From a virus (Duplodnaviria > Heunggongvirae > Uroviricota > Caudoviricetes), in the IMG/VR virus record IMGVR_UViG_2648501206_000003: 36,546 nucleotides of DNA; one strand, 5' to 3'. The translations under genes were made by a program, and so were the position numbers. This document shows positions 1-14,627 of this stretch, piece by piece. The notes under the pieces were generated by a model that ran no database searches, was not told the origin of the DNA, and saw nothing but the letters and a program-made list of their open reading frames with translations. Numbering within the stretch: the stretch's first letter is position 1; each line of letters begins with the position of its first letter.

Positions 1-1935
1 GATCATTAGATGGTCACACGTTCTGCTGGTGGATGTGATTTCTTGATGACCGTTCACCTTAATTGAGTGAGCTGCCGTCTCGCCAGTTTCATTATCGCTA
101 TCGTGATGCCGATTGCCGCCAGTGTTCTCCTTGTGTGGATGTTCAGCGCCCTCCATTTCCTCCGGATCATCTTCCTGAACTTCAACCTGATACTCTTCAT
201 CGAATGTTTCCTGGTATGTTGCGTCGCCCATCACCGCGCCACAATCAGGGCAGTTGCCGCCGCCGGTCTGACCGCAGGCGGTGCAGACTTTTTCCACTTC
301 CTGTTGCGCCACTGGTTCAGGCTGTTTCGTTTCTGGCTCGTTTTGTAACGCATTTGGGCTGTTTTGTTCCGCTTTTTGGTAGTTCCGTTCCGATTCATGC
401 TGGTTCTGGTTTACAGAATCGCGGGTCTGGATCCCCTTAACCCATTTCGGATCATTCGGGTCGCTAATCCCTGCAACAAATTCTCCGCGAGAGGCAGCAA
501 GCAACTTATCGGCGTCAGGCTGGCTGATATTGGCTGCCTGCATAATTTTGTTTACTTCGTCAGCGGTAACTTTTACCGGCCCTGGTTGTGCGGTCGTGTC
601 AGATGCACCAGTATTTTGTTGTGAACCTGAGTATGTACCGTTTTTGCGGGCGAAATATTCTTCTTTCGTGATTTCAGTAGCCCCGGCAGCCAGTGCCTTA
701 TCCAGACCAGAAAGTTTGTTTGCGCGACCGTATTTTTCGCCATCCTTGTCGGTGAAGAGGAAGTAGAACGGCCCCTCACGCTCTACAGATGGTTCGACTT
801 CCACTTTGCATTCGGTTTTTTCGTTGTCCGGAATTGCCGTTTCCACTGCATCAGTTTCTGGTACTGGCGACGAGAGAGTATCAGTTGCGCTCTGATTTCT
901 TCCTTCATCTTCAAACACGCCCTTTGTAGTCAGGTATTCAGTAATGTATTTGTTCAGTGCCACAGGGTCTTTGTGAATGTCGATCGGACGTTCACGGACA
1001 AGGCCAAAAATAGTCCGGCGGTCGTAGCGAAGGGCATCAGGCTGTTTGCGCATTGATGCCGAGATACGCTTCCAGTCTTCGCGGTCGTTGTCGATAACTT
1101 CATTTTTTGCCCAGCGATGGATGCTGCCGTCAATGTTTCCGGCATCCACATCACCAGGCCAGAGAGCGTAGGCCAGTTCGTCATCCAGTGTTTTCCATGT
1201 CTGCTTGTATTCGCGATGAATGGCAGCAATGACCAGGCTGATTTTTCCTGTTGAATTTTCAGTGTGCTGTTGATTGGCTCTGGCGCGGGCGAGATCAACA
1301 ACAGACGTGTATTTTCCGGCTTCCTTGCGTTCACCTTCGCGACGTTTTTTCCAGATGCGCATCTCTGCCTGAATTTCGGGCCATTTGGCACCAGGCTTAC
1401 ATTTATGCTTAACCCACCCGATGGCATGCAGCTTAAGCTCCGGATACATAGCGTTAACTTCTGGCATTTTCATCAACGCTTCAACGATATGTCCGTCGAA
1501 TGTTGCCATGTCTTCCTGCAACAATTCCTGCGCGCTAATCACCATATCAACGGTGATGTTTTCACATGTGTCGAACTTAACCATGACAGCGTTCTGTACT
1601 TCAGGGGCCAGCTTGTCAAAAGTGACGTTCATCGGATCTGATTCAGTCTCAACCGGGACAAAGGAAGCAGACTCCTCATCCCAGCGGTTTTCCTGCATAT
1701 ATTCAGCATCCCAGGAATCGAGGGCAGGGCGGGGTATACCGGGTTTATCCTCGCAAACAAGAAATTTATAAGCGCAGTCCTGAGCAGCCGGATAATGTTC
1801 CAGGAATTGCCAGTGAAATTTTGCGCGGGCGCGACGTTCATCACCGGCTTCAATGGCAGTGGCTACAGCGACTGCACCTTCTTCCTTTATTGCCTGTTCG
1901 TCCGGAATGGCGGCGCAAATAAAGACTTTACTCAT
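1..1935 (-). CDS. recE: Exonuclease VIII (RecE-like), N-terminal and middle part (~645 codons); gene continues past the left window edge
   Basis: Minus-strand frame is open from the window edge to ATG at 1935..1933, with an in-frame stop just upstream (1942..1944) and GAGGT 8 nt before the ATG. Translation around 300..215 reads EVEKVCTACGQTGGGNCPDCGAVMGDATY, which I recognise as the RecE middle region. Absent from the ORF track because it is truncated by the edge. Confidence 0.6.
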   Translation of the reverse strand, partial: MSKVFICAAIPDEQAIKEEGAVAVATAIEAGDERRARAKFHWQFLEHYPAAQDCAYKFLVCEDKPGIPRPALDSWDAEYMQENRWDEESASFVPVETESDPMNVTFDKLAPEVQNAVMVKFDTCENITVDMVISAQELLQEDMATFDGHIVEALMKMPEVNAMYPELKLHAIGWVKHKCKPGAKWPEIQAEMRIWKKRREGERKEAGKYTSVVDLARARANQQHTENSTGKISLVIAAIHREYKQTWKTLDDELAYALWPGDVDAGNIDGSIHRWAKNEVIDNDREDWKRISASMRKQPDALRYDRRTIFGLVRERPIDIHKDPVALNKYITEYLTTKGVFEDEGRNQSATDTLSSPVPETDAVETAIPDNEKTECKVEVEPSVEREGPFYFLFTDKDGEKYGRANKLSGLDKALAAGATEITKEEYFARKNGTYSGSQQNTGASDTTAQPGPVKVTADEVNKIMQAANISQPDADKLLAASRGEFVAGISDPNDPKWVKGIQTRDSVNQNQHESERNYQKAEQNSPNALQNEPETKQPEPVAQQEVEKVCTACGQTGGGNCPDCGAVMGDATYQETFDEEYQVEVQEDDPEEMEGAEHPHKENTGGNRHHDSDNETGETAAHSIKVNGHQEITSTSRTCDHLMI

Positions 1936-2027
1936 TTTGTTTTACCTCATTACAGATTTAAGGGTGAACAAATCCCTGCCATTTCTGGCATATAAGAATG
2001 AAATCGGATGTTTATTACGGAACTGTT

Positions 2028-2219
2028 TTAAAGACCTGCCGGGATTTCGTTATTATCCTGGTGAATAACTTTATCGACCGGGTAACAGTTACCGGGAATT
2101 TTCTGTTCGGTTGCTGCAGTCACACACTCCTGCATTGTCCTGTGAACACTGACTGCAATATCAACTGGCTCTCCGGAAACAAGAAAAAATGTCAGAACAA
2201 GTGCAAATGCTGTATTCAT
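2028..2219 (-). CDS. ydfD: YdfD-like small protein (63 aa, N-terminal hydrophobic segment); Qin YdfD is a reported lysis protein
   Basis: Internal ATG of track ORF 2028..2273 gives 63 aa (MNTAFALVLTFFLVSG...). The ATG overlaps the dicB stop in an ATGA arrangement. Position directly downstream of dicB matches the Qin dicB operon. Confidence 0.55.
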   Translation of the reverse strand: MNTAFALVLTFFLVSGEPVDIAVSVHRTMQECVTAATEQKIPGNCYPVDKVIHQDNNEIPAGL

Positions 2220-2404
2220 TGCCAGCATCCTTTTTGTATCGGACGTAAACGGGCCAGCATTGAAAGAATGCATATTTTATTTAATAACTCCCGTTCGTGT
2301 TTTCTCTTGTTAATGGCATCTTCAGTAAATACAGGGTTACTGATAGTGACACCAATTTCAAAACAACCTTCAGACGTATTAACGTTTGGTAATAACGTTT
2401 CCAT
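2216..2404 (-). CDS. dicB: Cell division inhibitor DicB (62 aa)
   Basis: Internal ATG of track ORF 2216..2509 with GAGGA 7 nt upstream gives 62 aa (METLLPNVNTSEGCFEIGVTISNPVFTEDAINKRK...). Recalled as DicB by sequence and length; sits immediately downstream of the DicF-like RNA. Confidence 0.65.
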   Translation of the reverse strand: METLLPNVNTSEGCFEIGVTISNPVFTEDAINKRKHERELLNKICILSMLARLRPIQKGCWQ

Positions 2405-2573
2405 TATCGCGTCCTCAACAATGAATTTTGTGATGCAGTGCCTGGTGCCTCCAGGTGACGTTAACCAGTTAACAATTAACGCCGGATACAGAGAATCCAC
2501 CCATAACACTGTTTTTGGTTTTAACTGTTCCGCGTGCGCTTAGCCGCATTCACCGCATCACAAAATTCACTTT

Positions 2574-2631
2574 AAAAAGGGCGGCAGAGCAGTCACGGAG
2601 TAAAACTGATACCGCCAAACGTCACCAGAAA
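2574..2631 (-). ncRNA. dicF: DicF-like small RNA (53 nt plus U-tract terminator)
   Basis: Minus-strand sequence TTTCTGGTGACGTTTGGCGGTATCAGTTTTACTCCGTGACTGCTCTGCCGCCC followed by TTTTT. It lies in a ~420 bp non-coding gap between the ydfC-like and dicB genes, exactly where dicF sits in Qin. Sequence match is from memory, not alignment. Confidence 0.6.
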
Positions 2632-2972
2632 ATTGATAACAGAGGGCGTTGCAGCGGGGTTGTCACTTAAGCGTATGGTCAACCTGACAACCCGGTGTCC
2701 TCAACGGGGGAAGGAATAACCCCGCCATACTTACCGCCGCGCCATTTCGCGGATTGCCACAACCGGAAGCGCACGGTCGACGAAAATTTAACGACAGGCT
2801 ATCTATGAACCAGCTACCTCGCCGTGCGCTTTCGCGTTATGGTCTGACTTTTCAGGGAAATATCCTTTCAGTAAACTGTCAGTGCCGGATGCTCACCCGT
2901 GTCCGGCGCACGCACTCCACCTCACCCGTGGAGAACTCCTTAATTACCAACCTTAGCTTCGTTGGTTAGCTA

Positions 2973-3191
2973 TTAACGCGGGTATGTAATCATTCTGGCA
3001 ATGCTTAATGCCGCTGCTTTTTCCAGATTGGTGATATCCTGCTCCAGAGCGGACAGATTTTCAGCCTGCTTAGCCCTGGCTTCATTAGCCCATTTCAGAT
3101 CCTGCGCTGCATTAATTTTCTGGCGCATCCACTCATAAAGTTCATCATCGGTATAGTCTGGCGCGATTATGACGGGTTCTCGTTTCTGCAT
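2973..3191 (-). CDS. ydfC: YdfC-like small protein (72 aa)
   Basis: Track ORF; AGGAA-type RBS upstream of ATG at 3191; length and position (third small gene of the leftward operon, upstream of dicF) match Qin ydfC as recalled. Confidence 0.5.
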   Translation of the reverse strand: MQKREPVIIAPDYTDDELYEWMRQKINAAQDLKWANEARAKQAENLSALEQDITNLEKAAALSIARMITYPR

Positions 3192-3220
3192 ACTGATTCC
3201 TCGCGGTGCTACTTCGCTTA

Positions 3221-3349
3221 TCAGCCGTTAGATTTTGCCGAGCTGGAAAGCGCCTGTTTAAACTCACTGAAGCTGAGAGCTTCTTCGCCTTCGGCAAGGT
3301 CTTCGAAGTATTCTTCGTAAGCCTTTTCCATGATTGTGTCGAAATCCAT
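3221..3349 (-). CDS. ydfB: YdfB-like small acidic protein (42 aa); below the ORF-track length cutoff
   Basis: Hand translation of minus strand: ATG at 3349..3347 preceded by AGGTGAG, giving MDFDTIMEKAYEEYFEDLAEGEEALSFSEFKQALSSSAKSNG, stop at 3223..3221. Tightly packed between the ydfA-like and ydfC-like ORFs. Confidence 0.5.
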   Translation of the reverse strand: MDFDTIMEKAYEEYFEDLAEGEEALSFSEFKQALSSSAKSNG

Positions 3350-3350
3350 A

Positions 3351-3506
3351 TCACTCACCTGAGTTTCTTTCCAGCCAGCGACGGGCACCATTTTCGGTTT
3401 TAAACGTTTTGCTTTTGGTATACGTCATCGCGGTGAACGTGCCGTCCTGGTTGGGAAACACGCCGTACACCAGAGATTCGTTGTTGCCAAGATCGATAGT
3501 ATCCAT
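3351..3506 (-). CDS. ydfA: YdfA-like small protein (51 aa from internal ATG; track ORF extends to 3587)
   Basis: Internal ATG at 3506 with GAGGT 5 nt upstream gives 51 aa (MDTIDLGNNESLVYG...ARRWLERNSGE). The stop lies 1 nt from the ydfB-like ATG. Start choice is uncertain (3506 vs 3587). Confidence 0.45.
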   Translation of the reverse strand: MDTIDLGNNESLVYGVFPNQDGTFTAMTYTKSKTFKTENGARRWLERNSGE

Positions 3507-3688
3507 GCTGACCTCATTTCCCCTTAACGCTGGGGTAGCGGAACAAAAACCTGCTGCATAGTTATTAAAGTTGAACCCTGCCGTCATGTTCTTACGCCTC
3601 GGGCTGGCTACTTAACCCCTGACCACTGCCTGGTAACTCGAAGTATTGCCCTGCATTCTGTGGGGCGGGGTGGGTTGGTATGAAAAGA

Positions 3689-3729
3689 AGGATACCCATA
3701 GGTATTTAAAAAGTAAATACCCATGGGTA
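3689..3729 (-). promoter_or_regulatory. Leftward early promoter (pL-like) with two repressor operator sites
   Basis: 12-bp near-palindromes TACCCATAGGTA (3693..3704) and TACCCATGGGTA (3718..3729). On the minus strand they read -35 TTTACT, 17 bp spacer, -10 TATCCT, with the operators abutting the -35 and overlapping the -10. Same motif as the sites at 4227..4262. Confidence 0.5.
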
Positions 3730-3771
3730 ACTTTTTGCGGTGTCTTAACTGGTGACTAGTTGTTTGGTGAG

Positions 3772-4191
3772 CTATGATGCGTTTTGTGCTTTCTTTTTAC
3801 GGATTTCTTCGTAGATCATATTGTAATACTGTTTTTTCTCTTCAAGAGTTTTTAATAAGTTATCCGCTTCACTTTCTGGCAGTTCGTCTAAGAGATCTAA
3901 AAAAATACGTTGTCGTGGCGTTAGAACCCTTGTTTCATAACTGGAGGCTGTGTTCGTTGATGATGAAACGATACCATCCATCCATCCCCGGGGTAACCCA
4001 AAGGACTCTTCGATAATCTCCACCATATCATCAGCGATCCGTTTTTTTCCCTTTTTCCCCTCTGGGTACAACATTCTTGATACATAAGAAGGCTCGCGCC
4101 CGATCTTTCTGGCCACGTTAACCGCTTTACCATCGCATTTCTCATCACGAATTTTGATGAGTTGCTGTCGTCTAAATTCATATTTGTCCAT
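3772..4191 (-). CDS. Prophage repressor (DicA/RacR-like, 139 aa, no S24 peptidase domain)
   Basis: Track ORF with an N-terminal HTH-like segment (GKAVNVARKIGREPSYVSRML). C-terminal pattern LTPRQRIFLDLLDELPESEADNLL resembles DicA as recalled. Divergent from the Cro-like gene and flanked on both sides by operator repeats. Confidence 0.6.
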   Translation of the reverse strand: MDKYEFRRQQLIKIRDEKCDGKAVNVARKIGREPSYVSRMLYPEGKKGKKRIADDMVEIIEESFGLPRGWMDGIVSSSTNTASSYETRVLTPRQRIFLDLLDELPESEADNLLKTLEEKKQYYNMIYEEIRKKKAQNAS

Positions 4192-4197
4192 AGGTAA

Positions 4198-4266
4198 ATA
4201 ATAGATGCGATTACCGCAAGGTAAACAACCTGTGGGTATTGACTTTTGTTTACCTGTGGGTATTCT
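4198..4266. promoter_or_regulatory. Divergent promoter/operator region: two operators, rightward pR-like promoter, leftward pRM-like promoter giving a near-leaderless repressor mRNA
   Basis: Operators AACCTGTGGGTA (4227..4238) and TACCTGTGGGTA (4251..4262). Plus strand: -35 TTGACT (4239..4244), 16 bp spacer, -10 TATTCT (4261..4266), then AAGGAG (4281..4286) and the ATG at 4292. Minus strand: -10 TATTAT (4203..4198) only 6 nt before the repressor ATG (4191). Confidence 0.5.
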
Positions 4267-4291
4267 TTACTGTGTTTACTAAGGAGTAGCT

Positions 4292-4573
4292 ATGGAAGAA
4301 TTAAGAATATTTCTCAATTCTCTTTCGTCAGATGAACAGCGTATGTTTGCATGCGAGTGTGGTACCAGCATCGGTTATCTAAGAAAGGCATTGAGTAAAG
4401 GTCAAGTGTTAGGGGCATCGTTATGCGTCCTTATTGAGCGAGCCAGTAATGGTGAAGTTACACGTCAGCAACTAAGGCCTTTTGATTGGATGAATATTTG
4501 GCCCGAGCTGGAAGATACCAAAACGTTAACACAACCACTTTCTAGGAGCTTGATTCATGAAAATCAAGCATGA
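4292..4573 (+). CDS. Cro-like HTH regulator (YdaS-family-like)
   Basis: Track ORF with strong RBS AAGGAG; motif GEVTRQQLRPFDW is typical of YdaS/Cro-type proteins; first gene of the rightward operon, divergent from the repressor. Confidence 0.6.
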   Translation: MEELRIFLNSLSSDEQRMFACECGTSIGYLRKALSKGQVLGASLCVLIERASNGEVTRQQLRPFDWMNIWPELEDTKTLTQPLSRSLIHENQA

Positions 4574-4982
4574 ACACATCCGCATGGCGATGAATGCCTG
4601 GGCGCATCCGGACGGTGAAAAAGTTCCGGCAGCTGAAATAACCAGGGCTTATTTTGAACTGGGTATGACGTTCCCAGAACTGTATGACGACAGCCATCCG
4701 GAAGCCCTGGCTCGCAATACCCAGAAAATTTTCCGCTGGGTAGAGAAAGACACCCCTGATGCAGTTGAAAAAATTCAGGCGTTGTTACCAGCGATCGAAA
4801 AGGCAATGCCACCTTTGCTGGTGGCCAGAATGCGCAGCCACAGTTCAGCTTATTTTCGGGAGCTGGTGGAGACGCGGGAGCGACTGGTGAGAGACGCTGA
4901 TGATTTTGTCGCAGTGGCAATCGCCGGTTTCAATCAGATGAACCGTGGTGGCCCGGCAGGAAATGCTGTGGCAGTACATTGA
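4557..4982 (+). CDS. YdaT-like protein (proposed CII functional analogue in Rac-type prophages)
   Basis: Track ORF; N-terminus MKIKHEHI... recalled as YdaT-like; overlaps the Cro-like stop by 17 nt; sits second in the rightward operon as in racR-ydaS-ydaT. Confidence 0.5.
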   Translation: MKIKHEHIRMAMNAWAHPDGEKVPAAEITRAYFELGMTFPELYDDSHPEALARNTQKIFRWVEKDTPDAVEKIQALLPAIEKAMPPLLVARMRSHSSAYFRELVETRERLVRDADDFVAVAIAGFNQMNRGGPAGNAVAVH

Positions 4983-5053: not shown

Positions 5054-6124
5054 ATGGCTAACGCCTGGCTCAGATTATGGCATGACATGCCAAATGACCC
5101 TAAGTGGCGAACAATTGCCAGGGTGTCAGGGCAGCCAATTGCAACAGTGATGGCAGTGTATATCCACCTCCTGGTGAGCGCGTCACGAAATGTCACGCGA
5201 GGTCACATTGATGTCACGACAGAAGATTTGGCAAGTGCGCTCGACGTGACAGAAGAGGTAATTGATTCAATTTTGCAGACGATGCAGGGGCGGGTACTTG
5301 ATGGTGATTTAATCACTGGATGGGAAAAACGCCAGGTGCTTAAAGAGGACAACGGCAATATTTCGCAAACCGCAAAATCTCCTGCAGAGCGCAAGAGGGC
5401 GCAGCGAGAGAGGGAAAGAAAGCGGGAACAAAATGGCGATTGTCACGGCGCGTCACGAAATGTCACGCACATGTCACGACGAGTCACGACAGATAAAGAT
5501 ACAGATAAAGATACAGATCAAGAAGATCAAAACACTATGGTCCATGGCGTAAAAAACGCCACGAACCAGGCAGGGGATGTTCAGACCGTCAATCTTGGTC
5601 AGCCAGCAGGCACGACACCGGAAGCCGATTCAGCGTATGCGCTGAAAGCCGATTCGGGCGCTGTGCAGCAGGTGATGACCCCAAGGCCGGAGCAATCACA
5701 CCAACTGCAGCAGCCTGAAGCCGATTCCGCCATTCAGCGGGAAGCCGATCGGGTAGTCCCGGAAAACACCGGGCTGTCTGTGGGACGAGTGGATTATCCG
5801 GATGTGTTCGAACAGGTCTGGCGGGAGTACCCGTTGCGTGCCGGAGCAAACCCGAAGAAATCCGCTTTCAGTGCCTGGAAGGCCAGATTACGCGAGGGGG
5901 TGCCACCAGAGGCCATGCTGGATGGCGTGAGGCGTTACGCAAGATACTTGGCGGCTACCGGGAAAACGGGAACGGAATTTGTTCAGCGAGCGACGACGTT
6001 TTTTGGACCGGACCGGAATTTTGAGAACCCCTGGTTGCTCCCGGTAAGCGGCACGAACAACCAGCGTTGTGTGAATCATATTTCTGAACCGGATAACGAA
6101 ATTCCGCCGGGCTTCAGGGGGTAA
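5054..6124 (+). CDS. Replication initiator (lambda O-like / replisome-organiser N-terminal domain); contains the probable origin
   Basis: Track ORF 5048..6124 (GTG); ATG at 5054 follows AGAAGAGG. N-terminus ANAWLRLWHDMPNDPKWRTIA resembles replisome-organiser/DUF1376-type initiators. Iteron arrays lie inside the coding sequence. Confidence 0.55.
   Translation: MANAWLRLWHDMPNDPKWRTIARVSGQPIATVMAVYIHLLVSASRNVTRGHIDVTTEDLASALDVTEEVIDSILQTMQGRVLDGDLITGWEKRQVLKEDNGNISQTAKSPAERKRAQRERERKREQNGDCHGASRNVTHMSRRVTTDKDTDKDTDQEDQNTMVHGVKNATNQAGDVQTVNLGQPAGTTPEADSAYALKADSGAVQQVMTPRPEQSHQLQQPEADSAIQREADRVVPENTGLSVGRVDYPDVFEQVWREYPLRAGANPKKSAFSAWKARLREGVPPEAMLDGVRRYARYLAATGKTGTEFVQRATTFFGPDRNFENPWLLPVSGTNNQRCVNHISEPDNEIPPGFRG
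5182..5218. repeat. Iteron cluster 1: four copies of GTCACG-type repeat at 10-11 bp phasing
   Basis: GTCACG at 5182, 5192, 5213 and GTCACA at 5202; block GCGTCACGAAATGTCACGC repeated again at 5450..5468. Confidence 0.55.
5442..5515. repeat. Iteron cluster 2 (five GTCACG repeats at ~10 bp phasing) plus adjacent AT-rich 12-bp tandem repeat; probable replication origin
   Basis: GTCACG at 5442, 5452, 5462, 5473, 5483; then GATAAAGATACA twice (5492..5515) in an A+T-rich stretch. Arrangement matches lambda ori lying inside gene O. Confidence 0.55.
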
Positions 6125-6164
6125 GTGTTAATTTCTGGTCATGAGGTAATTTTCAGGAGGACTT

Positions 6165-6590
6165 GTGGCAAAAGTTTTTACACAAGAAGAGCGGGAAAAA
6201 ATTAAAGGGCAGGTTGTTGAACTCGTACGCCGGAGTGGGCGCGAGACGTTACGGCAACTGGAAGCCAAGACAGGTGCGACAAGATATCTGATGAGCGTTC
6301 TTGCCAGAGAGCTGGTTGCCAGTGGCGATGTATACAACTCTGGTTACGGGTTATTCCCGTCTGAACAGGCGCGTAAGGACTGGCAAAATGCCCGCAAAAA
6401 ACTCTCAAGGGCAAAGGTGAAGAAACCTGCAGTGGTTGATCCGGACCTTATCTGGTCGTTACCAGACGGCGAAATACGCCGCTACGACAGGCGCCTGAAT
6501 ATAATCTGTCGCGAGTGCCGGAAGAGCGAAGCTATGCAGCGTGTACTGGCATTTTATCAAGGAAATGTTAGGTATTTTAGACGTTACTAG
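6165..6590 (+). CDS. Hypothetical protein (141 aa, possible winged-helix segment, C-terminal CxxC)
   Basis: Track ORF, GTG start preceded by AGGAGG; no family recognised; sits where lambdoid phages usually carry the helicase-loader gene. Confidence 0.45.
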   Translation: MAKVFTQEEREKIKGQVVELVRRSGRETLRQLEAKTGATRYLMSVLARELVASGDVYNSGYGLFPSEQARKDWQNARKKLSRAKVKKPAVVDPDLIWSLPDGEIRRYDRRLNIICRECRKSEAMQRVLAFYQGNVRYFRRY

Positions 6591-6743
6591 ATTAAAGAGC
6601 ATTAGTTCAGATGTGAATTGACATTTTCATGGCGCAGGGTAGAGCCAGCGTGGTTGTCCGCTTTGCGTCAAAACCAGATATTACCAGATTTAGACATATA
6701 TTCCCGATAGCCCTGCTCTGATGCTACACTCTGTGCTATTTTC

Positions 6744-7430
6744 ATGACCCCAATAAAAATATTTATGACTATTGCTGATTTCAAACGGCCTAAATTGGAG
6801 CTCCCAAACGGGGCAAACAAACTACTACTGCACTCTTGCTGTGCTCCATGTTCCGGTGAAGTGATGGAGGCGCTTCAGGCCTCGGGAATCGACTACACCA
6901 TCTTTTTCTACAACCCGAACATTCATCCTCAGAAAGAGTATTTAATTCGTAAGGATGAAAATATTCGCTTTGCTGAACAACACGGCGTGCCGTTTATCGA
7001 TGCTGATTACGACACCGACAACTGGTTTGAACGTGCCAAAGGAATGGAATGGGAGCCTGAGAGGGGGATCCGTTGTACCATGTGTTTTGACATGCGTTTT
7101 GAGCGGACAGCGTTGTACGCTGCTGAAAATGGTTTCAGTGTGATCAGCAGTTCACTGGGCATTTCACGCTGGAAAAATATGCAGCAGGTTAACGAGTGTG
7201 GGCGGCGAGCTGTTGCGCATTATCCGGGTATGGTGTACTGGGATTATAACTGGCGCAAGCAGGGCGGCTCGTCCCGTATGATTGAAATCAGCAAGCGCGA
7301 AAAATTCTATCAGCAGGAATATTGTGGCTGTGTGTATTCTCTGCGCGATACCAATCTACACCGCAAATCTCAGGGACGCCCTCTTATCAAAATTGGCCAA
7401 CTCCACTACGGAAAAGAAGAGAAGGAGTGA
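6744..7430 (+). CDS. DUF208 / QueH-like protein (candidate epoxyqueuosine reductase family); cargo gene
   Basis: Track ORF; motifs [11 protein letters not shown] and FFYNPNIHP recalled as signatures of the DUF208/QueH family; further Cys pairs (CTMC, CGC). Start could be 6744 or 6765. Confidence 0.5.
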
Positions 7431-7610
7431 TTTTATGGATCACCTTTCTGATTGATTTCATATTGGCGAGGTGACGTGAGTTAAGTAGAATGGCTGCGGG
7501 TGCTTGAGGCTATCTGTCTCAGGCATGAACACTGAAAGGCAGATAGAGAAAAGCCCCAGTTAACATTACGCGTCCGGCAAGACGCTTAACATTAATCTGA
7601 GGCTCAATCT

Positions 7611-7823
7611 ATGAACGGCAAATCTAGGTTAGCCTCTTACGTGCCGAAAGGCAAGGAGAAGCAGGCTATGAAGCAGCAAAAGGCGATGTTAATCGCCCTG
7701 ATCGTCATCTGTTTAACCGTCATTGTGACGGCACTGGTAACGAGGAAAGACCTCTGCGAGGTACGAATCCGAACCGGCCAGACGGAGGTCACTGTCTTCA
7801 CAGCTTACGAACCTGAGGAGTAA
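7611..7823 (+). CDS. mok: Mok (modulator of killing) reading frame, N-terminally extended over hok
   Basis: Track ORF of 70 aa whose last 51 residues are the Hok toxin, as in chromosomal mok/hok loci. Confidence 0.6.
   Translation: MNGKSRLASYVPKGKEKQAMKQQKAMLIALIVICLTVIVTALVTRKDLCEVRIRTGQTEVTVFTAYEPEE
7668..7823 (+). CDS. hok: Hok-family type I toxin (51 aa, HokD/RelF-like)
   Basis: MKQQKAMLIALIVICLTVIVTALVTRKDLCEVRIRTGQTEVTVFTAYEPEE, near-identical to HokD as recalled; AAGGAGAAG upstream of the ATG; stable hairpin GGCGGGGGAGAAATCCCTCGCC downstream (7831..7852). Confidence 0.85.
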   Translation: MKQQKAMLIALIVICLTVIVTALVTRKDLCEVRIRTGQTEVTVFTAYEPEE

Positions 7824-7966
7824 GAGACCAGGCGGGGGAGAAATCCCTCGCCACCTCTGATGTGTCAGGCATCCTCAACGCACCCGCACTTAACCCGCTT
7901 CGGCGTTTTTTCCGTTGATTAACTCTAGTTATTAGAGAACCGAACTTTTATTGATGGGGCAGGGAG

Positions 7967-8359
7967 ATGAAGAAACTTGTTTTAGTCGCAGGTGTAATGA
8001 TTGCAACAGTAATGTTGGGAGGGTGTGCAGCAAAGGTCGATCCAGCGTTGAAAGCAGAAGCAATGAAGCCACTAACATGTAATGATGAAAAGCAATGTGA
8101 CTTTTATTGGAAACGAGCGCAATTCTGGTTGGCTAATAATTCCTCATGGAAAATTCAAACGGCGACAGACACGCTAATTTCCACTTATAATCCCTCTCCA
8201 AATAGTCCATTCCTCGCTTATCAAGTGAGTAAAATGCCAAATGAAGATGGATCCTCAAGAATTTTCATCAAGCCTTTTTGCGATAATATGTTTGGCTGTC
8301 AACCAAACCCCTATCAGACAGTTGTTTCCTTTAAAAACTTCGTTAAAACTGGGCAGTAA
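7967..8359 (+). CDS. Putative lipoprotein (130 aa); cargo gene
   Basis: Signal peptide with lipobox MLGGC near the N-terminus; visibly A+T-richer than flanking genes; followed by an intrinsic terminator. Confidence 0.55.
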   Translation: MKKLVLVAGVMIATVMLGGCAAKVDPALKAEAMKPLTCNDEKQCDFYWKRAQFWLANNSSWKIQTATDTLISTYNPSPNSPFLAYQVSKMPNEDGSSRIFIKPFCDNMFGCQPNPYQTVVSFKNFVKTGQ

Positions 8360-8488
8360 TGTATAGCGGGACGGTAAATTATTAGTGAAAACGCTGTAAA
8401 CCCTATGGATTGAGTCAGGATTTAATCCGATAATTATTCTATCGTTCCTTTACAAGTCCGGCATATTACCTTCAGTTTGTTTTAGCAT

Positions 8489-8517: not shown

Positions 8518-8794
8518 GGCATTCTGGTTTACAATACGCACGCCAGCCTGAACAACTGGCACCTGCTGCGCCAGCAGAGACAACCGATGGCGCACGATAC
8601 CAAATTACACAATTCTAATGATTCTGCCGTCTTTGCCAGCAGGCGCGGACGGCGTTTTCACGTATTCAAATCAGACTGGTTCCAGCATCCTCCATGCACT
8701 GAAGAGCAGGCGGAATGGATAATTCAGTGTTACCGCAGGCGCGGATACGAGGTTAAGAAAGCCCTCAGCCTCGATTATCGTCACTGGATAATCT

Positions 8795-9913
8795 ATGTCA
8801 GGCTCCCTTATTCCGAACGCCCACCGCGCCCATCCCGCACATACCAGCAACGGATCTGGAGGTAACGTGCGGATATTACTTCGACCTGTTCTGGTACCGG
8901 AACTTGGGCTGGTGGTCCTTAGGCCGGGCCGTGAATCCATGCAAGTATTTCATAACCCTCGAGTGCTGGTGGAGCCTGAACCGAAAAGCATGCGCGGTCT
9001 GCCGTCCGGAGTCGTCCCTGCCGTTCGCCAGCCGCTGGCGGAGGATAAATCATTACTGCCATTTTTCAGCGATGAGCGGGTGATTCGTGCTGCTGGTGGT
9101 GCTGGTGCATTGTCTGACTGGCTGTTGCGCCATATTAAATCCTGCCAGTGGCCACACGGCGATTATCATCACAGCGAAACCGTCATTCACCGTTATGGTA
9201 CCGGCGCAATGGTGTTGTGCTGGCACTGCGACAACCAGCTGCGTGACCAGACATCCGAATCACTCGGGCAACTTGCTCATCAAAACCTGTCAGCATGGAT
9301 GATTGACGTCATCGGTCACGCAATAAGCGGTACGCAGGAGCGTGAATTATCTCTGGCTGAATTATCCTGGTGGGCGGTCCGCAATCAGGTGGCGGACGCG
9401 CTACCGGAAGCGGTATTACGTCGTTCGCTGGGGTTGCGTGCGGAAAAAATCCGTTCAATGTACCGTGAAAGCGACATCGTACCGGGAGAGCAGACCGCCA
9501 CCAGCATACTGAAGCAGCGCACAAAAAATCTTGCGCCGCTGCCTCACGCCCACCAGCAAAACCCGCCACAGGAAAAGACGGTGGTCAGCATTGCTGTTGA
9601 TCCGGAGTCTCCGGAATCTTTCATGAGGCGACCTAAACGTCGCCGTTGGGTAAATGAGAAATATACGCGCTGGGTGAAGACACAGCCGTGTGCGTGTTGT
9701 GGTCAGCCAGCCGACGATCCCCATCACCTGATTGGTCACGGTCAGGGAGGGATGGGAACAAAGGCCCACGATATTTTCACGCTACCGTTGTGCCGGGAAC
9801 ATCACAACGAACTTCATGCGGATCCGCTGGCGTTCGAAGAAAAGCATGGTTCCCAGGTTGATTTAATTTTTCGTTTTCTTGATCACGCCTTTGCAACCGG
9901 CGTGCTCGGGTAA
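8795..9913 (+). CDS. DUF968-domain protein (YdfU-like); N-terminus uncertain
   Basis: C-terminal region RPKRRRWVNEKYTRWVKTQPCACCGQPADDPHHLIGHGQGG...LPLCREHHNELH recalled as DUF968 (YdfU of Qin). Possible alternative start at 8939. An overlapping upstream ORF (8587..8865) in another frame may be a separate gene or a frameshifted N-terminus. Confidence 0.55.
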   Translation: MSGSLIPNAHRAHPAHTSNGSGGNVRILLRPVLVPELGLVVLRPGRESMQVFHNPRVLVEPEPKSMRGLPSGVVPAVRQPLAEDKSLLPFFSDERVIRAAGGAGALSDWLLRHIKSCQWPHGDYHHSETVIHRYGTGAMVLCWHCDNQLRDQTSESLGQLAHQNLSAWMIDVIGHAISGTQERELSLAELSWWAVRNQVADALPEAVLRRSLGLRAEKIRSMYRESDIVPGEQTATSILKQRTKNLAPLPHAHQQNPPQEKTVVSIAVDPESPESFMRRPKRRRWVNEKYTRWVKTQPCACCGQPADDPHHLIGHGQGGMGTKAHDIFTLPLCREHHNELHADPLAFEEKHGSQVDLIFRFLDHAFATGVLG

Positions 9914-11068: not shown

Positions 11069-11965
11069 ATGCATGCGTTTAATTACTTTTTGGACCATTG
11101 CAACATGAAATCAGATAAGGCAGAAAACTTAGAGAATCCACTCGAACGTAATGATTTTACAATTGATGACTTCCACCATGTTCTTAGGGAGTTTGATAAA
11201 GCTGTTTGTGAAGCCAATGCGGTAAGTCAGGGAGTAGGTGTGCGAATGGCTGAGGCTTATCAAGGTTGGTCAACATATATATTTGCACGAATTTGCATTC
11301 ATGCTTCGATTATGATTTCTAATGTTCCTAAGTCCAGATGGGCTAAGCGAGATTACGATTTCTGGGATTTTGCTTCTATAGCATCTCATGTCAGGGCGAT
11401 CCTTGAAGCTGAACTTCTGTTTATGTATTTGTCTGAAGCACCAGATTCAGAAGAGGCTTGGTCAGCAAAGCTAAATGTTATGCACATGAATGATTGTGTA
11501 AAAAGGATAGAATTATTCACGCAAAGTGATAATACAGAAGCATTAGAGTTTTATAATGAGCAACAGAGTATAATTGCGGAAAGACTCAATAAAAACCCTG
11601 CTTTTTTATCACTTGATAGTGGTACTAGGAAACGTTGCTTGTCAGGCAAGGCTTTAACAATTCCTAATAGAGACGATTTATTGATTAAACTAGGGAAAGA
11701 CCCAAAATCGTTTAAAGTGATGTTTGATTTTCTATCGCATTACACACACATACTCCCTATGTCATATTACAAAATGGAACCGAATGGGAGAGGGACTGGT
11801 TGTTTTAACAAGTTCGATTTTGGATATATAATAATGGGTATGTTGCTATGTACTGAATCTTTGATTAAGTGTACTGAACGGTTGGTGGATATTTTCCCTG
11901 ATGTTAAACGGTTAAGAAAAGGAACTAAATCAAAATTTACATTGGGCCCTAAACCAACAAAATAA
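11069..11965 (+). CDS. Hypothetical protein, 298 aa, A+T-rich cargo gene of unknown function at the Q/lysis junction
   Basis: Track ORF; my manual count of the first 60 nt gives ~35% GC versus ~52% in terL; no recognisable family motif; no obvious SD at either candidate start (11069 or 11105); own terminator-like hairpin downstream. Confidence 0.55.
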   Translation: MHAFNYFLDHCNMKSDKAENLENPLERNDFTIDDFHHVLREFDKAVCEANAVSQGVGVRMAEAYQGWSTYIFARICIHASIMISNVPKSRWAKRDYDFWDFASIASHVRAILEAELLFMYLSEAPDSEEAWSAKLNVMHMNDCVKRIELFTQSDNTEALEFYNEQQSIIAERLNKNPAFLSLDSGTRKRCLSGKALTIPNRDDLLIKLGKDPKSFKVMFDFLSHYTHILPMSYYKMEPNGRGTGCFNKFDFGYIIMGMLLCTESLIKCTERLVDIFPDVKRLRKGTKSKFTLGPKPTK

Positions 11966-14087: not shown

Positions 14088-14627
14088 TTAGAAACTGCGT
14101 GGAGCTGTGGAAAGAATGGATGCCAGTTCTTCCTTTGATAAATCCCAGCTTCGATTTACAGCGTCAATTTTCTTAAACTCATCAAGCATTGCGTTATAGA
14201 GATGTTCTGTACGTGAATGAGTATTGGCAATGGGCTGTTTCTGTTCGGGGAAGCGATCAATTTTCTGATACGCCTCAATGATACTGAAGTAATCGCATTC
14301 ATTATTACCGTCGAAACCTGGGAGCTGAATTTCCCCATCATGTATTTTTAGATGATGGTCACGGACTAATTCTTTTTGCTCGTCATCACTAAGTTTCCTG
14401 AAAGCATTGGAAAGTCCGCGGTACATATTCAATACAGCAGTAACAAAATCACGATCTTCTTTACTTGGTTCATCAACATCCAAATGTGAATATTCGGCCT
14501 TCATAACCCAATCATTACCAGATGACACAGCATATTTTACAAGCTGTGGATCAATATCAGTTTCGATACCTAGGTGGATGGCAATGTCACATAACAAAAT
14601 GGTATTGATTTTATCCTTAATATCCAT
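14088..14627 (-). CDS. YfbU-family (UPF0304-like) protein, 179 aa; antisense A+T-rich cargo gene between lysis and packaging modules
   Basis: Track ORF on the opposite strand to all flanking phage genes; segments VTAVLNMYRGLSNAFRKL, GFDGNNECDYFSIIEAY and THSRTEHLYNAML parallel E. coli YfbU as recalled; own terminator. Confidence 0.5.
   Translation of the reverse strand: MDIKDKINTILLCDIAIHLGIETDIDPQLVKYAVSSGNDWVMKAEYSHLDVDEPSKEDRDFVTAVLNMYRGLSNAFRKLSDDEQKELVRDHHLKIHDGEIQLPGFDGNNECDYFSIIEAYQKIDRFPEQKQPIANTHSRTEHLYNAMLDEFKKIDAVNRSWDLSKEELASILSTAPRSF

Follow-up and report, generated by a model that had tools for sequence, protein, structure and literature searches.

A dicBF operon with DicF as the probable early-left operon of a lambda-like Escherichia coli prophage

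In phage lambda the repressor-controlled early-left (pL) operon has the gene for the division inhibitor Kil upstream of genes for recombination, excision and integration. DicB, from the dicBF operon of the Escherichia coli K-12 prophage Qin, inhibits FtsZ-ring formation together with MinC. It also inhibits inner-membrane phage receptor proteins and mediates phage resistance (PMC6832061), and YdfD, encoded next to it, causes lysis via inhibition of the IspG step (PMC8835842). In K-12 the operon is subject to DicA-type repression at dicBp, its small RNA DicF is processed by RNases III and E and accumulates in stationary phase, and no detected transcript extended beyond ydfABC-dicF (10.1101/2023.04.14.536235). 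A 2016 paper demonstrated DicF pairing with ftsZ by compensatory mutations and described the spread of dicBF among E. coli prophages (PMC5069750). The K-12 operon ends in a ydfE pseudogene interrupted by IS2 and an intQ pseudogene, in keeping with the preliminary description of the present DNA, which had it flanked by IS-disrupted sequence.

Two further relatives bear on the comparison. The plaque-forming phage Tritos (OV696610.1), which is prophage 3 of E. coli LF82 and yields virions (PMC9928086), has an integrase gene, an excisionase gene, an 823-aa exonuclease gene, ydfD, dicB, an annotated DicF, ydfC-ydfB-ydfA and a 139-aa CI-type repressor gene. The layout of Rac (ydaG-ydaF ... kilS-kilR-ydaE-racC-recE-recT) is parallel, with a DUF1391 gene, a small RNA, an FtsZ inhibitor and a large exonuclease, though KilR and kilS stand there where DicB and dicF stand here.

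The region considered here is part of a window of 36,546 nucleotides (IMG/VR record IMGVR_UViG_2648501206_000003). It is, with high confidence, the early-left operon of a lambda-like E. coli prophage and the same operon as dicBF of Qin. A dicBF operon with DicF is already known and common, the same arrangement being annotated in the isolated phage Tritos, and with DicF, DicB and YdfD well studied the finding has little weight as a discovery. The rarity that the preliminary description implied does not hold, since isolated phages have the block and so do most E. coli genomes (of 5426 complete ones, 3969 contain DicF). The useful outcome is corrections. The gene beside dicBF that is widely labelled 'exonuclease VIII/recE' has no RecT partner, and its nuclease domain is of the DEDDh 3'-5' type, and the copy of the operon here appears, from its sequence, to be under a repressor different from DicA.

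The operon and its small genes

The operon is on the minus strand in the order ydfA-ydfB-ydfC-dicF-dicB-ydfD-(ydfE), with the genes, order and spacing of Qin (Table 1). Between a point 37 nt upstream of ydfA and the beginning of ydfE, its DNA is 97.4% identical to that of Qin; identity to the Tritos operon is 97.5%. The 5' leader is shared with Tritos from about 3676 and with Rac over 3519..3682, and with K-12 Qin from 3543 only. DNA homology to Rac comes in three stretches, the leader (87%), the spacer between small RNA and inhibitor gene, which in Rac separates kilS from kilR (80.6%), and the central region of the exonuclease gene (85%).

Table 1. Features of the operon, its control region and the adjoining exonuclease gene (window positions)
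Feature	Position	Strand	Basis
Exonuclease gene, N-terminal 645 codons of 823 aa	1..1935	-	Translation; intact form of K-12 ydfE
ydfD, 63 aa, DUF1482	2028..2219	-	PF07358, E 7.7e-24
dicB, 62 aa, cell-division inhibitor	2216..2404	-	PF05358, E 1.7e-37
Spacer and 5' UTR, DicF to dicB	2405..2578	-	98.9% identical to K-12
dicF, 53-nt sRNA (2579..2631) with terminator hairpin, and T-run (2574..2578)	2574..2631	-	Rfam RF00039
Non-coding leader upstream of DicF	2632..2972	-	97.7% identical to K-12
ydfC, 72 aa	2973..3191	-	phrog_1744
ydfB, 42 aa	3221..3349	-	phrog_2061, E 1e-26
ydfA, 51 aa, DUF1391	3351..3506	-	PF07151, E 1.7e-28, 98.5 bits
5' leader of operon	3507..3682	-	Alignments with Tritos and K-12 Qin; blastn against Rac region
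Putative early-left (pL-like) promoter with two operator-like palindromes	3689..3729	-	Motif search, sequence reading
Repressor-like gene, 139 aa, cI/dicA position	3772..4191	-	phrog_5736 'transcriptional regulator', E 4e-70
Divergent promoter/operator region, repressor to cro-like gene	4185..4291	.	Motif and promoter-like matches
Three operator-like sites	4185..4196, 4227..4238, 4251..4262		Motif search
Cro/YdaS-like regulator	4292..4573	+	phrog_35/phrog_163 set; PF15943 (weak)
YdaT/cII-like gene, after Cro/YdaS-like gene	4557..4982		phrog_35/phrog_163 set; PF06254

All five small ORFs are intact. YdfA and YdfC are identical to their K-12 counterparts (51/51 and 72/72 aa) and YdfB nearly so (41/42), the differences in ydfABC being almost only silent changes. 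DicB matches PF05358 over its full length (127.4 bits; cut-off 27) and NCBIfam NF049927 (132.7 bits; cut-off 100), YdfD matches PF07358 (83.8 bits; cut-off 25), and their identities to K-12 are 55/62 and 58/63 aa, respectively. Among the codons that differ from K-12, 7 of 11 in dicB and all five in ydfD are amino-acid-changing, with four of the seven DicB substitutions in the last eight residues. Because the differences are mostly of this type, the activities of DicB and YdfD could differ from those of the K-12 alleles.

These family matches and identities put ydfA, ydfB, ydfC, dicB and ydfD in Qin order at the places where the preliminary description had them, and the overlap of the dicB stop with the ydfD start reads directly as ATGA, the coupling it had noted. 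The small-ORF homology, the DicF covariance model and the dicF alignment, the points on which that description had staked its reading, are all positive. Two of its measurements need amendment. The non-coding gap between ydfC and dicB, given as about 420 bp, is 568 nt (2405..2972), and its end coordinate of 3587 corresponds to an upstream ATG, a start from which ydfA would be 78 aa long. The 51-aa form is the better call because K-12 has no conserved counterpart of the extension, which is also without a Shine-Dalgarno sequence. A 181-aa antisense ORF (1998..2543, +) was also set aside as a gene, since a stop codon interrupts it in K-12.

One chromosome is 99.9% identical over the whole window, and its RefSeq annotation, with the order repressor, cro-like, cII-like, replication, Q, lysis, head and tail, backs the description's 'full set' of structural genes. 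The prophage here still has lysis, head and tail genes in contrast to Qin. Its integrase gene is frameshifted in the identical chromosomes, and for that reason the prophage may not be fully functional. No tRNA genes were found in the window, and in a PADLOC search neither DicB and YdfD nor the repressor and nearby cargo genes matched a defence family.

DicF and what it may do

The Rfam DicF model, RF00039, matches 2579..2630 (-) over its full length (1-52 of 52) with 76.7 bits (gathering score 48 bits) and E 2e-15. All 53 nt are identical to the experimentally defined 53-nt DicF of K-12, as are about 130 nt around it. The small RNA that the preliminary description had recognised between ydfC and dicB is therefore there on both counts, inside a polycistronic operon. 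Its 3' hairpin (-15.9 kcal/mol) is followed by UUUUU; a simple terminator scan did not list it. The region of the ~190-nt precursor that RNase III generates in K-12 corresponds to about 2579..2769, where 188 of 190 positions are identical, and in the predicted fold an upstream GGCGG..GGCGGGG pairs with the 3' half of DicF (z = -2.2). In all seven records examined, dicF is left unannotated by RefSeq.

With the K-12 ftsZ leader, the RNAduplex optimum for DicF spans the Shine-Dalgarno sequence and the start codon, and 105 of 1000 shuffled DicF sequences do equally well. Since the prediction is no better than that for shuffled DicF, the case for pairing with ftsZ rests on the published genetics. 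Of 5425 E. coli genomes, 5389 carry the ftsZ leader with 99% identity or more.

The place of the hairpin and U-run, between ydfC and dicB, raises the potential for DicF to serve mainly in cis, attenuating transcription into dicB and on through int with any role in trans secondary. The K-12 transcripts, none longer than ydfABC-dicF, fit with this, and no N-like antiterminator gene was seen at the start of the operon. However, genetic work on the identical RNA has shown that it acts in trans on ftsZ, xylR and pykA (PMC5069750), and although termination does not require the single-stranded 5' part of DicF, this part too is perfectly conserved with respect to K-12. A mainly cis function is improbable on this evidence, though cis and trans roles are not mutually exclusive.

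That the operon is inert cargo, a conserved remnant that contributes nothing to phage or host, is very unlikely. The K-12 operon is tightly repressed and toxic on expression, dicB and ydfD have an excess of amino-acid changes with respect to K-12, and the integrase frameshift noted above could be taken to point the same way. Against this, the five ORFs are all intact, ydfABC have accumulated almost only silent changes, and DicF and its flanks are invariant. Plaque-forming phages have the block, and complete E. coli genomes have kept it in 73-88% of cases, often as multiple copies; the published stationary-phase accumulation of DicF and phage resistance mediated by DicB (PMC6832061) also count against it.

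The control region and a model for expression

Upstream of the operon the control region is, as judged by sequence, not dicA/dicC; there is a different repressor with its own palindromic operator-like sites. DNA homology to Qin ends at 3543. The 139-aa repressor scores 23.9 bits with the NCBIfam model for DicA (NF007257; cut-off 101) and resembles DicA in its C-terminal 46 aa only, at 33% identity. It has no Pfam match, shows no similarity to RacR of Rac, and is only 39% identical to the 'CI repressor' of Tritos, whose promoter and operator sequences also differ. In place of DicC there is a YdaS-like cro gene, the product of which matches DicC with an E-value of 0.054. Qin further has Rem, while no homologue of this antirepressor was found at the equivalent position here (8587..8865).

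The operator-like palindromes cluster around the repressor gene only. Five of the 14 matches to the motif in the window are within the 365 bp of intergenic DNA that flank this gene, where 0.1 would be expected (Poisson P about 4e-6, seed site excluded). On the side of the cro-like gene, promoter-like sites are at 4239..4266 (+) and 4225..4198 (-). On the operon side are TACCCATGGGTA at 3718..3729 and TACCCATAGGTA at 3693..3704, with a candidate -35 element, TTTACT (3712..3717), and a candidate -10 element, TATCCT (3689..3694), separated by a 17-nt spacer. The early-left promoter in this arrangement is putative, as the hexamers score 8/12, under the scanner threshold of 9/12, and the consensus promoter scan did not report it. 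The two sites lie in an inverted repeat that was itself flagged as terminator-like. Homology to Tritos starts just downstream of the proposed promoter, at about 3676, and the mosaic boundary with Qin likewise is just downstream of it.

With expression, processing and phenotypes carried over by analogy from K-12 Qin, the following course of events can be proposed for this phage. In the lysogen the operon would be held off by the 139-aa prophage repressor, with its DNA-binding part unrelated to that of DicA and predicted to bind TACCCATGGGTA-type palindromes overlapping the promoter. Once repression is lifted, leftward transcription would start about 175 nt upstream of ydfA. Most transcripts would stop at the DicF hairpin and U-run, and RNases III and E would trim the 5' side to leave the 53-nt DicF, both steps having been shown in K-12 for sequence that is identical here. 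DicF would then pair with the ribosome-binding site of ftsZ mRNA and with xylR and pykA mRNAs and repress them, as it does in K-12. Read-through past DicF would give DicB, with inhibition of the FtsZ ring together with MinC and of phage receptor proteins, and further on YdfD for lysis, the 823-aa DEDDh 3'-5' exonuclease, a DUF4224 protein and the integrase. Overall, host division would be blocked and host metabolism altered early after induction, effects comparable to those of lambda Kil and Rac KilR. The likeness to the lambda pL operon and its Kil is one of layout and an analogy only. There is no N antiterminator gene here and no Exo, Bet or Gam, and the division block includes a small RNA.

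The exonuclease gene next to ydfD

The large gene after ydfD is ydfE, cut by IS2 in Qin and intact here, and its product is identical to that of K-12 ydfE at 247 of 255 aa (97%). The Tritos exonuclease is 93% identical to it, while the excisionase, integrase and late regions of Tritos differ from those here. From its start at 1935 (-) the ORF continues to the left edge of the window, which cuts it just before the DEDDh catalytic domain, so that the intactness ascribed to it in the preliminary description cannot be seen in the window; in chromosomes that are 99.9-100% identical the full-length gene encodes 823 aa. In the full-length protein PF16473, the T4 DexA-like DEDDh 3'-5' exonuclease domain, is at aa 642-813, beyond the window, and carries DLE and HNALDD motifs. 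Two entries for T4 DexA, 8KEL and 8KEN, are the sole PDB relatives, the former having been identified as DexA (PMC12153337). PADLOC returned a weak DEDDh match only. A search for literature on ydfE as a prophage exonuclease found none.

The preliminary description took this gene for recE, and its domain content is not that of RecE. Rac has a true RecE (PF06630 and PF12684) together with RecT; the exonuclease here has neither domain and no such partner. By Pfam, PF06630, the N-terminal Exonuc_VIII domain, which Rac RecE matches with E 6e-98, is absent from the 645 visible aa and from the full 823-aa protein, and PF12684, the C-terminal PD-(D/E)XK nuclease domain of Rac RecE, is absent from the 823-aa protein. 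Likeness to RecE is limited to a central stretch, close to Rac RecE residues about 453-587, and the match to the NCBIfam exonuclease VIII equivalog (NF007259; cut-off 1269) covers residues 246-624 only, with 283.5 bits. No recT or other annealing protein gene follows in the identical chromosomes or in Tritos, the next genes, for which the window does not extend far enough, being a DUF4224 gene and then the integrase gene in the former and the excisionase and integrase genes in the latter. A nuclease-only 'Tritos' type of recombination module, with no annealing protein, was described in 2025 (PMC12315714). A second BLAST match within the gene, at first considered an internal repeat, was to the Rac locus; there is no repeat.

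An intact recombination module of RecE type (exonuclease VIII, RecET-like) joined to the dicB operon is hardly credible, for though several phage records annotate the gene after ydfD as 'exodeoxyribonuclease VIII' and both the central alignment with Rac RecE and the NCBIfam match lean that way, that match is far under its cut-off, both Rac RecE domains are missing, the catalytic domain and the PDB relatives (PMC12153337) are of DexA type, the gene ends in the window before any nuclease domain, and a nuclease with no annealing partner is what the Tritos module type (PMC12315714) has.

A more speculative reading, with a small chance of being right, concerns the flanks of the operon rather than DicF, with dicBF under a 139-aa repressor that responds to other triggers and a co-transcribed 823-aa chimera used for defence or scavenging. 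The repressor may be one with no recognisable autocleavage domain, with TACCCATGGGTA-type operators and of leaderless mRNA origin. The chimera would consist of a non-catalytic RecE-like scaffold and a DEDDh nuclease like that of T4 DexA. Such a protein might act in DNA scavenging, or protect against phages whose DNA is modified, a role already suggested for bacterial homologues of DexA (PMC12153337), instead of taking part in recombination. Under this repressor, the division block would be triggered by signals unlike those that act via DicA and Rem in Qin.

The dicBF operon and its DicF RNA

The dicB-type operon that the preliminary description had placed near the left end of the window is real and was for the most part correctly recognized; the module is known and very common, and the only corrections of note concern the nature of the neighboring exonuclease and an immunity region that is not that of DicA. 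Reading of the minus strand of 1800..3900, together with an ORF listing, gives the gene order described, ydfA, ydfB, ydfC, a non-coding stretch, dicB and ydfD, with the ATG of ydfD overlapping the dicB stop codon (ATGA) as had been said. The non-coding gap is 568 nt (2405..2972) rather than the ~420 bp stated earlier. An Rfam scan of the entire window at gathering thresholds returned two matches, one being DicF at its expected place in the gap. Its predicted fold has the expected hairpin and U-run, and in that of the precursor, upstream sequence pairs with the 3′ half of DicF. The DicB product exceeds the cut-off of the NCBIfam DicB model (132.7 bits versus 100), and PHROGs families exist for all five proteins. 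Antisense to dicB and ydfD is a 181 amino acid cysteine-rich ORF (1998..2543, plus strand), open here and with a stop codon in K-12, that is most likely not a gene.

Features of the operon and control region
Feature	Position	Strand	Product or match	Identity to K-12
ydfA	3351..3506	-	51 aa; ORF listing; PF07151	51/51 aa
ydfB	3221..3349	-	42 aa; ORF listing	41/42 aa
ydfC	2973..3191	-	72 aa; ORF listing	72/72 aa
DicF (RF00039)	2579..2630	-	Rfam, 76.7 bits (threshold 48), E 2e-15, full model	53/53 nt
DicF precursor region (~190 nt)				188/190 nt
dicB	2216..2404	-	62 aa; PF05358, E 1.7e-37	55/62 aa
ydfD	2028..2219	-	63 aa; PF07358	58/63 aa
Repressor-like gene	3772..4191	-	139 aa; phrog_5736 'transcriptional regulator'
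YdaS/Cro-like gene, divergent	4292..4573	+	profile matches
YdaT/cII-like gene	4557..4982	+	profile matches
Promoter-like site, cro-like gene	4239..4266	+	consensus promoter scan
Promoter-like site, repressor gene	4225..4198	-	consensus promoter scan

Alignment of the Qin region of MG1655 to the window shows 97.4% identity, with one 1-nt indel, from 3543, 37 nt upstream of where ydfA starts, to the beginning of the gene after ydfD, and the relationship of the five small ORFs to Qin proteins is borne out by the identities tabulated. The ~130 nt around DicF are, like DicF itself, identical to K-12. Nearly all codon differences in ydfABC are silent; among the small numbers available, 7 of the 11 differing codons of dicB and all five of ydfD change the amino acid, and four of the DicB changes are within its last eight residues. 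In Rac, another cryptic K-12 prophage, the kilS-to-kilR spacer (8250..8416 of the Rac record L004) is 80.6% identical to the DicF-to-dicB spacer (2420..2584), and the region upstream of ydaG (9466..9621) is 87% identical to the operon leader (3519..3682). This homology of spacer and leader makes both early-left operons mosaics of one layout, which comprises a DUF1391 gene, an sRNA, an FtsZ inhibitor and an exonuclease.

The mechanism proposed for the operon is transferred from K-12, where its steps have been shown. The action of DicB with MinC is established. The K-12 promoter is repressed by the prophage's repressor, and the polycistronic transcript, which begins upstream of ydfA, is processed by RNase III as well as RNase E to DicF forms of ~190 and 53 nt, transcripts longer than ydfABC-dicF being undetectable (10.1101/2023.04.14.536235). 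DicF pairs by its 3′ part with ftsZ and by its 5′ part with xylR (PMC5069750), DicB protects against phage via inner-membrane receptor proteins (PMC6832061) and YdfD, by inhibiting the IspG step, lyses cells (PMC8835842). By analogy, the prophage repressor would repress the operon promoter here, and derepression would yield a transcript starting upstream of ydfA from which the same two RNases would trim both DicF forms, with DicF then expected to pair with ftsZ and xylR, DicB to give phage protection and YdfD to cause lysis. The ftsZ leader is almost invariant across E. coli; our own duplex calculation for DicF and this leader gave no informative signal.

The exonuclease gene after ydfD

The ORF after ydfD, previously taken for recE, starts at 1935 on the minus strand and runs off the left end of the window. 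Its visible 645 codons give no Pfam match, and their product is 97% identical to that of the K-12 ydfE pseudogene, so the junction of dicBF with a ydfE-type gene is the ancestral Qin arrangement. K-12 ydfE is cut by IS2 whereas the window counterpart is uninterrupted; the proposed contrast with a disrupted K-12 copy therefore holds, but the neighbor is not RecE. 'Apparently intact' fits the window-identical chromosomes, where the gene is complete at 823 codons (5575..8046 of chromosome record L003) and precedes a DUF4224 gene, an integrase carrying a frameshift, and tRNA-Ser, but not the window, at whose end it is cut.

Amino acids 642-813, outside the window, are the catalytic DEDD 3′-5′ exonuclease domain (PF16473, E 1.5e-67; motifs DLE and HNALDD), in place of the PF06630 and PF12684 of Rac RecE. 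Alignment with Rac RecE is confined to a central stretch, closest at RecE residues ~453-587, and the score of 283.5 bits with the NCBI exonuclease VIII model is far short of its cut-off of 1269. The only solved structural relatives are two T4 DexA entries, 8KEL and 8KEN (DexA: PMC12153337). A 2025 survey found DnaQ-like 3′-5′ nucleases in lambda-like recombination modules, with a 'Tritos' type having a nuclease without an annealing protein (PMC12315714); the exonuclease of Tritos, a plaque-forming phage (prophage 3 of E. coli LF82; OV696610.1), is 93% identical, and no recT follows the 823-codon gene. By domain content, exonuclease VIII score, DexA relatives and module type the gene is thus not RecE, and no RecET module is present. 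By sequence the protein is a chimera of a non-catalytic N-terminal part, with the central RecE-like stretch, and a T4 DexA-like DEDDh 3′-5′ nuclease domain; a connection with the anti-phage DexA homologues called 'HREX' (PMC12153337) is possible. The gene is frequently annotated 'exodeoxyribonuclease VIII'.

Control region and repressor

Qin homology ends at 3543, so that the region has neither dicA and dicC nor the dicBp promoter of K-12; the three control genes tabulated stand there instead. The 139 amino acid repressor shows neither a Pfam domain nor a recognizable autocleavage domain, resembles DicA in its last 46 amino acids only, and is 39% identical to Tritos CI. The motif made up of the perfect palindrome TACCCATGGGTA and variants of it, which we infer to be operator-like, has two sites in the DNA separating the repressor gene from ydfA (3718..3729 and 3693..3704) and three in the intergenic region of the divergent genes (4185..4262); five of its 14 matches in the window lie in 365 bp, against an expectation of 0.1. 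Between the two left palindromes can be read a weak candidate promoter (TTTACT-17 nt-TATCCT, 8/12) that the consensus promoter scan does not list. Tritos homology starts ~6 nt downstream of the start it implies, and Rac homology at 3682, boundaries that would fit a mosaic joint at the transcript start. Repressor transcription would begin at or adjoining its ATG, its mRNA possibly being leaderless as is lambda cI mRNA.

Distribution and other prophage genes

Of 5426 complete E. coli genomes, 4771 match the 1.9-kb operon block, at up to 10 places in one genome, and 2104 of these contain at least 80% of it; DicF plus short flanks occurs in 3969 of the 5426, in up to seven copies. Over its full length the window matches the chromosomal prophages of several strains at 99.9-100% identity. 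The best genome matches to the block include UMNF18 and an APEC O78:H4 strain; Balasubramanian et al. 2016 found dicF and the dicBF locus kept in different prophages of many strains, naming UMNF18 and an APEC O78 strain (PMC5069750). In the examined RefSeq records of E. coli (five listed DicF matches, L003 and L001, a chromosome with a related prophage), the DicF position carries no annotation. Phage records with the operon are of induced and isolated lambda-like phages and Stx phages. That of Tritos, which produces virions and plaques (PMC9928086), has it completely annotated, 'DicF antisense sRNA' included.

In chromosomes carrying the prophage, the integrase adjoining tRNA-Ser, outside the window, is annotated as frameshifted (L001 5253..6303, L003 4263..5313) and a stop codon interrupts one small gene of the late region; the prophage may therefore be partly defective. 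Two genes are likely cargo: 11105..11965 (plus strand, weak DUF5677 match), directly downstream of the Q antiterminator gene, the position of stx in Stx phages, and 14088..14627 (minus strand, YfbU family), on the opposite strand between lysis genes and terminase; PADLOC gave no match for either. The replication/nin-like region has a gene for QueH, epoxyqueuosine reductase (6744..7430, plus strand; PF02677, E 1e-65), where the L001 prophage has a SAM-dependent methyltransferase instead. There is also a hok/sok type I toxin-antitoxin locus, with sok at 7498..7673 (plus strand; RF01794, 111.9 bits versus a gathering score of 59) and hokD, annotated in a window-identical chromosome, at 7668..7823 (plus strand); in Tritos, HokD is the prophage gene with the highest expression (PMC9928086).
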